Assembly: GCF_000026545.1 (NCBI RefSeq)
Contig: NC_011601.1
Origin: Escherichia coli O127:H6 str. E2348/69
GTDB lineage: Bacteria > Pseudomonadota > Gammaproteobacteria > Enterobacterales > Enterobacteriaceae
Length of the DNA: 64,000 nucleotides
Reading direction: 5' to 3' (one strand)
The notes below the pieces were generated by a model, which had not been told where the DNA came from, ran no database searches, and saw only the letters and a program-made list of their open reading frames with translations. The translations under genes and the position numbers were made by a program. Shown piece after piece: positions 9,346 through 12,657 of the stretch; position 1 is the first letter of the stretch; every line of letters begins with the position of its first letter.

Positions 9346-9566
9346 AAAATTAAATAATTTCATTGGTTTTATTAATGTACTTGAGATGAATATTTTCACC
9401 AGATTAGCATGACGGTGCATTCTTCAAGGCATATATGGTTAATAGTATCTTCAGTAGCATGCATAAGTATTGAGATTTTTTATGCCAGCTACGAATATAT
9501 TGCATATCTCATTCTCTGTAAGATTTCTTATTAGCACTTAGCCATTTCTAGTTAAAAGGATTAATT

Positions 9567-10449
9567 ATGAGTTTTGCAGCTACTGATTATCCATCCGGCG
9601 CACTAGCTGGATCGGGTACACACAATGTGACTTTGAGCGGCAGCGCAGTTCCTGATGGAATGTTACTGTTTGCAAACTTAGGGGGGACAGAAACAGTAGG
9701 GGAACTATTTACTTATTCTATTAAATTAAAAACTCCTGACATCCTGAACCTGGACTATGTTTCCCCCGCAGCCAACCTGCAGCTCAAACCGATGGTGGGC
9801 AAAGATCTGTGCGTCAATATCGAACTGGATGGCGGCGGAAAACGGTATATCAGCGGGCTGGTGACGGCGGCACGCGTGGCCGGTCATCAAGGACGCTCGG
9901 TGGTGTATGAACTGCGACTCGAACCGTGGTTAAAAACACTGACCCACACTAGTGACTACAAAGCGTTTCAGAATAAAAACGTGGTGGACATCCTGGATGA
10001 GGTACTGGATGAGTACCCCTGGCCAGTGGAAAAACGATTGGTAGAAAACTATCCGACTCGCGCCTGGCAGGTGCAGTACGGTGAAACAGATTTCGATTTT
10101 ATTCAGCGCCTGATGCAGGAGTGGGGTATCTACTGGTGGTTTGAGCACAACGAGAACAGTCATACGTTAGTGCTGGCTGATGCCATTAATGTCCACAAGG
10201 CATGCGCAGATTCGCCGCTGGTGTGTTATTACCAGAAAGGGCTGAAACTGGACAAGGAGTTTATCCATACCATCACAGCAAATGAAAGCCTGCGCAGCGG
10301 ACAGTGGGTGCTGAATGATTTCGACTTTATGAAGCCGCGTTCACTGCTGAAGAGCACTGTGGCTAATCCGCGTGAAACCGGCCTTGCTGAATATGAGTAC
10401 TACGAATGGCCGGGAGACTACTTCACAAAGAGTGAAGGTGAAATGCTGA
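9567..10449 (+). pseudogene. vgrG: vgrG (T6SS spike) N-terminal fragment
   Basis: gp27-like N-terminal region incl. ...[28 protein letters not shown]...; homology ends near residue ~300 and the frame then runs into nonsense; the gp5/OB-fold and C-terminal parts are absent. Confidence 0.7.
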
Positions 10450-11606
10450 CACGCATCCGAATGGAAGAACAGCGTAGCCCCGGTAGTCGGGTACAGGGCA
10501 GCGGCCAGGCAGCTTTACGACCCCGGCGGGCGACTGAAGCGCAGGGAGACATACAGCGGGATGCGCGGGGTGGTTCCGGACACGTTCACGGACCGGCAGT
10601 ACAGCTACAGCGGCGAGGATGAACTGCTGAAGACGCGGCACAGCCGGCGGGGGGAAACGGACTACTTCTATGACACCACGGGGCGCATCACGGCGTGTCG
10701 CTCGGAGGATGAGGGGTATCTGGCGAGCTGGGAGTACGACGCGGCGGGCAACCTGCTGGACAGGCGCGCGGGGGGAAGGGCCACGGCAGAAAACAGCGTG
10801 GTGCTGTTCAACCGGCTGATGTCTTACCGTGGTGTGCACTACCGTTATGACGAATTTGGCCGTGCGGTGGAAAAGGAGGGGCGGAGCGGAACACAGAGTT
10901 ACCGTTATGATGCGGAACACCGGATGGTGGAAGTGACGACAGCGCGGGAGACATACCGGTATGTGTACGATGCGCTGGGGAGGCGGACGGAAAACAGCAC
11001 ATCAGCCCTGACGGTAAACCGTACAACCGGACAAAATTTTTATGGGACGGAATGCGGCTGGCGCAGGAGAACAGGCCGGAGGGAATAAGCAGCCTGTATA
11101 TCTACAGCGACCCGGGAAGTTATGAACCGCTGGCGCGGTTGGATAAGGCGGGGAAAGAGGGACCGAACCGGATACTGTATTTTCACACGGATGTGAACGG
11201 TGCTCCGGAAGAGATGACGGACAGCAACGGGAAAATTGTGTGGGAGACGGGGTATCAGGTCTGGGGTAACACGATACAGGAGAAGGACCACGGCGGGGTG
11301 GAGCAGAACCTGCGATACCAGGGGCAGTACCTCGACAGGGAAACGGGGCTGCACTACAATCTGCACAGGTACTATGATCCGGATGTCGGGCGGTTCATGG
11401 TAACGGACCCGATAGGGCTGCGGGGCGGGTTAAACTTATATGCTTATGCGCCGAATCCGTTAACGTATATTGATCCTCTTGGTCTTTGTAAATTAAGGGG
11501 AAGTAATGGGCGCTTTAGAAGTGCACAGAATATTCAGGAAGAAATAGGCGGCCTGCCCAATTTTTCAGGAAAAACCCCCAGGGCAAATACGGCAAACTTT
11601 GCGTAA
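10450..11606 (+). pseudogene. rhs 3' core fragment with frameshift, ending in the DPxGL junction and a short C-terminal tip
   Basis: YD repeats in frame 1 ([10 protein letters not shown]..., YRYDEFGRAVEKEG..., YRYVYDALGRRTE) continue in frame 0 (PYNRTKFLWDGMRLAQE...LHYNLHRYYDPDVGRFMVTDPIGL...PLTYIDPLGL); frame switch at roughly 10980..11000 near an A run. Confidence 0.7.
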
Positions 11607-11916
11607 TCGAGTTTATTCTTCGGTACAAGCGCATAGTGGAGGAGAGGTCTGGACAAAAGCATTACCTGACGGAAATACTGTTGCAGTGAGAATTGACCCA
11701 GCAAATCCTCGCTCACCTTCACATTATGCCGATGCTGTACCTCATGCTCATATTGAAACAGTTCCAACATCCAGTGTTTCTAATGGGAATTATCGTCCGA
11801 GAGACGTGATGGGCAGGCATACTGCCACTGGTGGGGGGTCTGACCGAGGAACGAATCCGAATTATAACGCTGATGTTCACATTCCAATGTCTCCGGGACG
11901 ATCCCCATATAATTAA
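11599..11916 (+). CDS. uncertain ORF; possibly an out-of-frame continuation of the Rhs C-terminal toxin domain
   Basis: 105 aa ORF with TTG start and no clear RBS, beginning just downstream of A/C homopolymer runs at the end of the rhs tip. Confidence 0.25.
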   Translation: MRNRVYSSVQAHSGGEVWTKALPDGNTVAVRIDPANPRSPSHYADAVPHAHIETVPTSSVSNGNYRPRDVMGRHTATGGGSDRGTNPNYNADVHIPMSPGRSPYN

Positions 11917-11927
11917 TGTGAGGTTTT

Positions 11928-12206
11928 ATGAATATCCGAAATCAATATAATGAAGCCTTAAATAAATTAGATGTTGATGTTAATGATGGTTTGAGAGATT
12001 TAATAAACATATATTGTGTGGCTATTGATTCTTTTGAAAATGATATCGTTGACTCGATTGCTTTATACGTGATTGATATGGAAAATAAAGATACTTGTCG
12101 ATATCTACAAGAAATATTATCAGAGAATAAAGATCCTTATTTAGTAAAAGAGTTTAATGTATGGATAAAAGAAATTAAGAAAAATATTAAAATAAAAGCC
12201 GGGTAA
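11928..12206 (+). CDS. small AT-rich ORF in the position of an Rhs immunity gene
   Basis: 92 aa; GTGAGG RBS 6 nt upstream of ATG; very low GC; directly downstream of the rhs C-terminal tip. Confidence 0.45.
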   Translation: MNIRNQYNEALNKLDVDVNDGLRDLINIYCVAIDSFENDIVDSIALYVIDMENKDTCRYLQEILSENKDPYLVKEFNVWIKEIKKNIKIKAG

Positions 12207-12232
12207 GAAATTAAATCTTCCCGGCTTTTTAT
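12196..12232. terminator. rho-independent terminator candidate
   Basis: AAGCCGGG...CCCGGCTT stem followed by TTTTT. Confidence 0.4.
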
Positions 12233-12235
12233 TAT

Positions 12236-12436
12236 TTAACTCTCGTTCAGCACACTAAACATCGCGTCACACATCCCCTTAATCGCCTGTTTAACCTGAT
12301 AAAGTTCCCTGCGCAGTTCCTGTACTTCGTTGTTATCCGCAAGCAGGATCAGACAACCTTTCGAGATCTTCACGGTAACGCCCGTGCCGATCTCAAATCC
12401 CGCTTCTCTCAGCCATTTGGCGCTGATTTTGAGCAC
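12236..12436 (-). pseudogene. 5'-truncated SymE-like (AbrB/SpoVT-fold) toxin homolog
   Basis: ...PVLKISAKWLREAGFEIGTGVTVKISKGCLILLADN... resembles the SymE core [33 protein letters not shown] (recalled); an in-frame stop lies just upstream, so ~45 N-terminal residues are missing. Confidence 0.5.
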
Positions 12437-12450
12437 TGGCGCGTGATGCA

Positions 12451-12657
12451 GTGGGCCAGCTCATGGCAAAGGAGACAGCAGATAGCCGTACGGAATATGT
12501 CTATGATGCGGCAGACCTGCTACTGGAAATCCGCTGCAGATGGTCGTATGCCCGGGAAACGGACGCACCGGAGATTATCTGCTTCAGTTACGACAGACTG
12601 GGACAGTTGCTGACCGAGGAGACGGTGCAAAAATTCAAAATTATCCATTTAACCTAA
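12451..12657 (+). pseudogene. orphan Rhs YD-repeat fragment
   Basis: 68 aa ORF with YD-repeat-like units (TEYVYDAADLLLEI, FSYDRLGQLL); no full gene context. Confidence 0.35.

Follow-up and report, generated by a model that had tools for sequence, protein, structure and literature searches.

A decayed vgrG-rhs module between ansP and pptA in Escherichia coli O127:H6 E2348/69, a strain reported to lack a T6SS

Results

Identification of the remnant

The region between ansP and pptA on the E2348/69 chromosome is very probably the decayed remnant of an accessory T6SS island, in which the 5' part of vgrG is now joined to the 3' part of rhs and the rhs part carries two further frameshifts. The locus was analysed within a stretch of 64,000 nucleotides, referred to here as the window, whose numbering is used throughout; its features are collected in Table 1. 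Both pseudogene pieces are already in the NCBI PGAP annotation, which labels 9567-10505 as 'phage late control D family protein, missing C-terminus' and 10495-11507 as 'RHS..., frameshifted; incomplete', and their pseudogenisation is thus not new.

Table 1. Features of the remnant and of the genes around it in the window
Feature	Position	Strand	Basis
HExxH metallopeptidase gene, 176 aa, intact, first of the accessory T6SS island	8463..8993	+	PDB 6h56_A
T6SS immunity lipoprotein gene, frameshifted after codon 5	8990..9345	+	NCBIfam NF045617, comparison with LI60C3
vgrG pseudogene fragment, codons 1-313 of 664	9567..10505	+	Alignment to LI60C3, Pfam, TIGR03361, PGAP
Deletion junction with 2-nt filler CA	10506..10507	+	Three-way comparison: window, A37 vgrG, four rhs references
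3' part of the Rhs core, corresponding to codons 1111-1436 of LI60C3 Rhs	10508..11486	+	Alignment, Pfam, GC, PGAP
Rhs C-terminal toxin domain, about 142 aa, frameshifted	11487..11916	+	Alignment to JNE151685 Rhs
Gene in immunity position, 92 aa, intact, AT-rich	11928..12206	+	Alignment to JNE151685
symE-like type I toxin remnant without its first 31 codons	12236..12436	-	NF010128, comparison with JNE151685
Second isolated Rhs core scrap, 194 bp, equivalent to LI60C3 8957-9150	12436..12629	+	87% identity to LI60C3 and A37 rhs

Six-frame translation shows the VgrG sequence in frame with the ATG at 9567. This piece matches TIGR03361 in an NCBIfam profile search (E 1.4e-64) only over positions 10-283 of 513, and Pfam Phage_GPD (E 3.5e-85) over model positions 1-266 of 305, the latter match stopping at the junction. 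The gp27-like hub domain is therefore incomplete, and the gp5-like OB-fold and C-terminal beta-helix spike, which belong to the part of TIGR03361 and of LI60C3 vgrG that is gone, are absent. Rhs YD-repeat sequence then follows in the +1 frame from about 10508, and returns to the first frame after about 10991 before the conserved core end (...DPIGL...PLTYIDPLGL), whose last residue is encoded up to 11486. Once its frame is repaired, the Rhs piece matches Pfam RHS (E 1.5e-14) and RHS_repeat (E 9e-7) and has this core end; neither these matches nor those of VgrG are due to chance. A preliminary description of the region had likewise read the 5' part of vgrG as running into YD-repeat sequence in another frame, and the translations and profile matches agree with it, except that what it took for the first third of vgrG amounts to 47% of the codons in comparison with LI60C3.

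The GC content is about 50% before the junction and 62-66% in the Rhs core; the toxin part has 45-49% and the next gene 24-28%. A GC-rich core followed by an AT-richer tip and a GC-poor downstream gene is the composition described for rhs genes by Jackson et al. 2009 (PMC2935791), and the profile of the window thus shows the classical Rhs pattern.

A deletion of 4,908 bp relative to an intact locus

The best intact reference is the syntenic vgrG-eagR-rhs locus of strain LI60C3 (L006), which carries vgrG at 3501-5495 (664 codons), a DcrB-related/EagR chaperone gene at 5546-5998 (150 codons) and rhs at 6017-10651 (1544 codons). Positions 8310-10505 of the window align with L006 2243-4439 at 98.5% identity and positions 10508-11459 with L006 9348-10300 at 98.2%, so that L006 4440-9347, a total of 4,908 bp, is missing from E2348/69. 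Lost with this interval are vgrG codons 314-664 (the 3' 53% of the gene), the whole of eagR, and Rhs codons 1-1110, which comprise the N-terminal region and about 77% of the stretch that ends with the core. The EagR/DUF1795 chaperone gene is present in LI60C3 and in most intact loci; in E2348/69 it falls in the deleted interval and is absent. With the breakpoints mapped on an intact locus, the multi-kilobase deletion across the vgrG 3' end and most of the rhs core that the preliminary description had proposed is borne out, and it is seen to have taken eagR as well.

Identity to intact vgrG alleles ends at 10505 and identity to rhs begins at 10508, which puts the junction 30-60 nt to the right of the earlier estimate of 10440..10480. 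The two filler nucleotides match neither parent in any of the four rhs references. They lie between two GGCAGC hexamers, at 10494-10499 and 10508-10513 (junction sequence, GGCAGCGGCCAGGCAGCTTTACG). Short direct repeats had been suggested as a feature to look for here; a clean repeat or microhomology was rejected, given the CA filler and the retention of both hexamer copies, which is not a single-copy junction. Codon 313 of vgrG was thus joined to Rhs codon 1111 by illegitimate (non-homologous) deletion, with the loss of at least 4.9 kb.

We also considered that the rhs piece had been an orphan cassette all along, consisting of a core fragment, a tip and an immunity gene downstream of a full-length rhs, and that a deletion larger than 4.9 kb took the whole main rhs. 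Such cassettes are typical downstream of rhs genes (PMC2935791), the window holds a second core scrap, strain 2014C-3338 has a truncated vgrG followed by an orphan cassette starting at LI60C3 coordinate 8864, and in JNE151685 the cassette of C-terminal domain, immunity gene and symE is found at another rhs site. However, it is the main rhs at the syntenic locus of LI60C3 to which the core fragment is 98.2% identical, one deletion of 4.9 kb explains the data most parsimoniously, and the ancestral arrangement that the orphan-cassette view requires was found in no genome, making a pre-existing orphan cassette possible but doubtful. As it stands, the locus has the structure of a cassette but no full-length rhs, and E2348/69 has a single place matching the vgrG or the rhs core of 9567-11606; for a 3-kb query spanning vgrG and rhs the median in other genomes is four places, and vgrG alone has up to three.

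Two frameshifts in the remaining rhs sequence

In a global alignment with four references (A37, E200086, 2014C-3338 and JNE151685), the return to the first frame is a -1 frameshift caused by a 1-nt deletion in the A-run 10991-10994 (A4 versus A5), within the 10980..11000 given by the preliminary description. A second, +1 frameshift inside the toxin domain had been missed. It consists of one extra base in the C-run 11575-11579 relative to JNE151685, which has an intact 1576-aa Rhs at its rhsC site with a matching C-terminal cassette (93.5-97% nucleotide identity by segment). Repair of both shifts gives one frame from the core through the 142-aa C-terminal domain to a stop at 11914-11916. The stop at 11604-11606, which had led to the feature being closed at 11606, is thus an artefact of the C-run shift, and the open reading frame 11599-11916 encodes the end of this one Rhs protein and is itself inactivated. 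In sum, the Rhs reading frame has lost its start codon, retains only the equivalent of LI60C3 codons 1111-1436 in its core, and is interrupted at both homopolymers.

Given that both shifts lie in homopolymers (A4 and C5), they might be put down to errors of sequencing or assembly, with the Rhs 3' part and toxin forming one open frame in reality. We give this next to no credence. Positions 9300-12300 are 100% identical in three independent assemblies of E2348/69, and the shifts recur in five further strains of differing laboratory and host origin; even if the shifts were removed, the gene would have no start codon, N-terminal region or delivery partner and would still be short of 77% of the sequence that leads to the core end.

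As the preliminary description had stated, no intact T6SS delivery gene is left; PGAP lists both the vgrG and the rhs piece as pseudogenes. One observation counts against a fully dead reading of the fragment. Beyond the junction the vgrG frame reads through 38 out-of-frame codons to a stop at 10620-10622, and the truncated frame still begins with its start codon and has a plausible ribosome-binding site; a 351-aa product could therefore be made.

The toxin domain

The toxin domain in E2348/69 is dead. The preliminary description had regarded the downstream toxin and immunity genes as orphans. This holds for the immunity gene, which is intact, but the toxin is no separate gene, being the frameshifted C-terminal domain of the same Rhs frame.

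In its intact form the domain has no sequence match in Pfam, NCBIfam, PADLOC or the PDB. An exhaustive HMMER search (E<=1e-3) found a family of 107 cluster representatives, with clusters formed at 50% identity; among the matches listed, the domain is mostly at or near the C-terminus, in proteins of up to 5,789 aa. PT7, a polymorphic-toxin nuclease described as a metal-dependent DNase with a novel fold (bioRxiv 10.1101/2021.10.19.465003; PDB 8owu), offers a distant comparison. In a search of profile against PDB the two have no match at the sequence level, the domain here is some 60 residues longer, and PT7 was described on LXG/T7SS fusions whereas the present domain is carried on Rhs. DNase activity of this Rhs C-terminal domain is thus conceivable by inference only.

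The immunity gene

Of the genes in the rhs cassette, only that at 11928-12206 is uninterrupted. It is 96.8% identical to the gene that follows the intact Rhs in JNE151685, and a 1-nt indel at 12180 sets the C-terminal tails of the two versions apart. The same protein (WP_001026259.1) is encoded in all six genomes examined. Across the five genomes compared, its 279 bp contain no variable site, whereas the flanking pseudogene DNA varies at 17 sites and has 2 indels over 2350 bp. Selection on the gene is not significant, about 2 variable sites being expected in it (P ~0.13).

These data bear on whether the remnant is still partly functional, with the gene being kept by selection as orphan immunity against attackers that carry the same Rhs toxin, such as those of the JNE151685 type. 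That in the rhs cassette the immunity frame alone has stayed open, with an identical protein in six of six genomes, that another E. coli possesses an intact Rhs with this toxin, and that the variable sites are distributed as described would fit such a role. Yet the contrast in variable sites is not significant, a 279-bp AT-rich frame can stay open by chance at 0.4-0.8% divergence, and the C-terminal tail has already been altered relative to JNE151685. On balance we regard retention by selection as unlikely. The intact immunity and metallopeptidase genes would be survivors of the decay.

Upstream and downstream genes

The metallopeptidase gene that opens the island is 531 nt long, equal to its length in the intact loci of A37 and LI60C3, and its product is homologous to the effector domain of Pseudomonas aeruginosa VgrG2b (PDB 6h56_A, E 2.9e-18, residues 4-138). 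The next gene matches NF045617, 'putative T6SS immunity periplasmic lipoprotein' (E 5e-7). It has lost one T in the T-run 8999-9005 (T7 versus T8 in LI60C3), and with it the start codon and signal peptide. Three sister genomes keep the T-run and carry a different lipoprotein frameshift at 9175. The lipoprotein gene has thus been knocked out on two independent occasions, whereas the effector gene remains open.

Downstream of the immunity gene, the symE-like remnant matches NCBIfam NF010128 SymE over profile positions 42-88 of 113 (E 1.3e-8), with 34.7 bits against a cutoff of 132. The gene is not full length; its loss of 31 codons is judged against the 97-aa version in JNE151685, and its 5' end is cut off by the rhs scrap that follows. 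Two Rfam matches lie in the same place, both below their gathering scores: the Salmonella isrA, antisense to the symE 5' end at 12366-12451 (31.6 bits against 51, E 4e-4), and the Shigella Ssr1 in 12058-12500 (175 bits against 820, E 3e-49). The arrangement suggests a type I toxin-antitoxin pair travelling with Rhs cassettes. The same antisense placement, directly after the Rhs C-terminal domain and immunity pair, is seen at the four other rhs loci where a symE-family gene is annotated, namely those of JNE151685 and LI60C3 and two copies in 2014C-3338.

The second rhs scrap, annotated by PGAP as 'hypothetical protein, incomplete', corresponds in the intact gene to sequence about 200 bp upstream of the start of the first fragment. 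It probably once headed an orphan cassette, the rest of which has been deleted, and it implies a second deletion reaching towards pptA. Elsewhere in the window, gene fragments were noted at two places, a 165-bp piece of a diguanylate cyclase gene adjoining dosP (37608-37772) and pieces of a GntR-family and a hypothetical gene near mnaT (2359-2582).

Related loci in other genomes

Fourteen genomes carry the same vgrG-rhs deletion architecture, of which five other than E2348/69 were examined. The junction and both frameshifts are common to all five, so that these three lesions are not sequencing errors. The order in which deletion and frameshifts arose is not recoverable from the six genomes, all of which share all three, and the preliminary description's placing of a frameshift after the deletion is thus not borne out. 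Some sister genomes have acquired private damage in addition, such as a 7-bp duplication at 9709 in DCE7 and a 1-nt deletion at 10770 in 2015C-4136CT1. Such private lesions are the signature of continuing neutral decay.

About 261 genomes carry the vgrG gene; among 5,426 complete genomes, 196 retain at least 80% of it. Elsewhere in E. coli, at least six further deletions have independently damaged the vgrG-eagR-rhs locus, and the vgrG endpoints in these lineages are nt 122, 746, 927/928, about 1013, 1448 and 1970. In A37, eagR and the 5' end of rhs are gone (L006 5470 is fused to 6572; A37 site L002 16237) despite a nearly complete vgrG, up to nt 1970 of 1995. E200086-type strains have vgrG nt 928 joined to rhs at L006 7380 with a short shared GGGTA-type motif (L003 7189-7195), and in 2014C-3338 vgrG ends near nt 1013 (L005 about 6270). 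Three breakpoints, at nt 927/928, 939 and about 1013, fall within 86 bp, but a deletion hotspot was rejected: with all endpoints considered, a rough scan estimate gives P of about 0.2, which is not significant.

Discussion

The region described here is an accessory T6SS module that has undergone ordinary decay, and the strain that carries it is reported to be without a T6SS. [quoted passage not shown] The aspV site (NZ_LT827011.1) contains no island: yafV comes immediately after the aspV tRNA-Asp. On the question, raised by the preliminary description, of whether a core cluster exists elsewhere in the genome, none is thus reported, on the basis of one paper and one insertion site. We infer that no product of the locus can be assembled onto, or delivered by, a T6SS.

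In the reading that we propose, the ancestral island began with the metallopeptidase effector and the lipoprotein immunity gene, continued with vgrG, eagR and an rhs gene ending in its toxin domain, and closed with the immunity gene and the symE-like gene. A deletion of at least 4.9 kb removed the OB-fold and beta-helix of VgrG, the EagR gene and the Rhs N-terminal region. Homopolymer frameshifts broke the Rhs core (-A, 10991-10994) and the toxin domain (+C, 11575-11579), a T-run frameshift broke the upstream lipoprotein gene, and the symE-like gene lost its 5' end. These lesions probably reflect relaxed selection after the loss, or in the absence, of the T6SS apparatus.

Intact vgrG-eagR-rhs modules at ansP-pptA, such as that of LI60C3, occupy the same site, have the same metallopeptidase and lipoprotein genes upstream, and share the downstream layout of C-terminal domain, immunity gene and symE-like gene; they are 98-99% identical in nucleotides to the retained vgrG and rhs core parts. 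E2348/69 differs from them in the 4,908 bp that are gone, in the two frameshifts in what remains, and in a different type of C-terminal toxin. The remnant also resembles the rhs 'relics' or dissociated tips described previously (PMC2935791), with a partial GC-rich core, a PxxxxDPxGL end, an AT-richer tip, a GC-poor gene and extra core scraps. Unlike those relics, it has no full-length rhs upstream to recombine with, and its tip is itself frameshifted.

The same ansP-pptA interval of K-12 contains rhsE (b1456), likewise a 3' rhs fragment annotated as a pseudogene. In this case, there is no vgrG remnant and the flanking cargo is different (yncG, yncH, ydcD and an H-repeat). A comparison of rhsE (L014 4891-6939) with positions 9567-12629 of the window detected no nucleotide similarity, and homology between the two was rejected in spite of the shared site. 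Unrelated rhs lineages have thus filled the ansP-pptA site.

The locus documents base by base how an accessory T6SS spike and Rhs module decays in a strain reported to lack the apparatus. Beyond correct annotation its significance is small: no intact orphan toxin is left, and open frames survive only in the immunity gene and in the metallopeptidase gene upstream. It is improbable, if conceivable, that the orphan immunity could help T6SS-less EPEC to survive E. coli armed with this Rhs toxin, whose family lies outside Pfam and NCBIfam, is widespread, and would have a fold only distantly like that of the PT7 DNase. The one point of wider interest is this uncharacterised toxin domain itself, which would be better studied in the intact JNE151685 allele.
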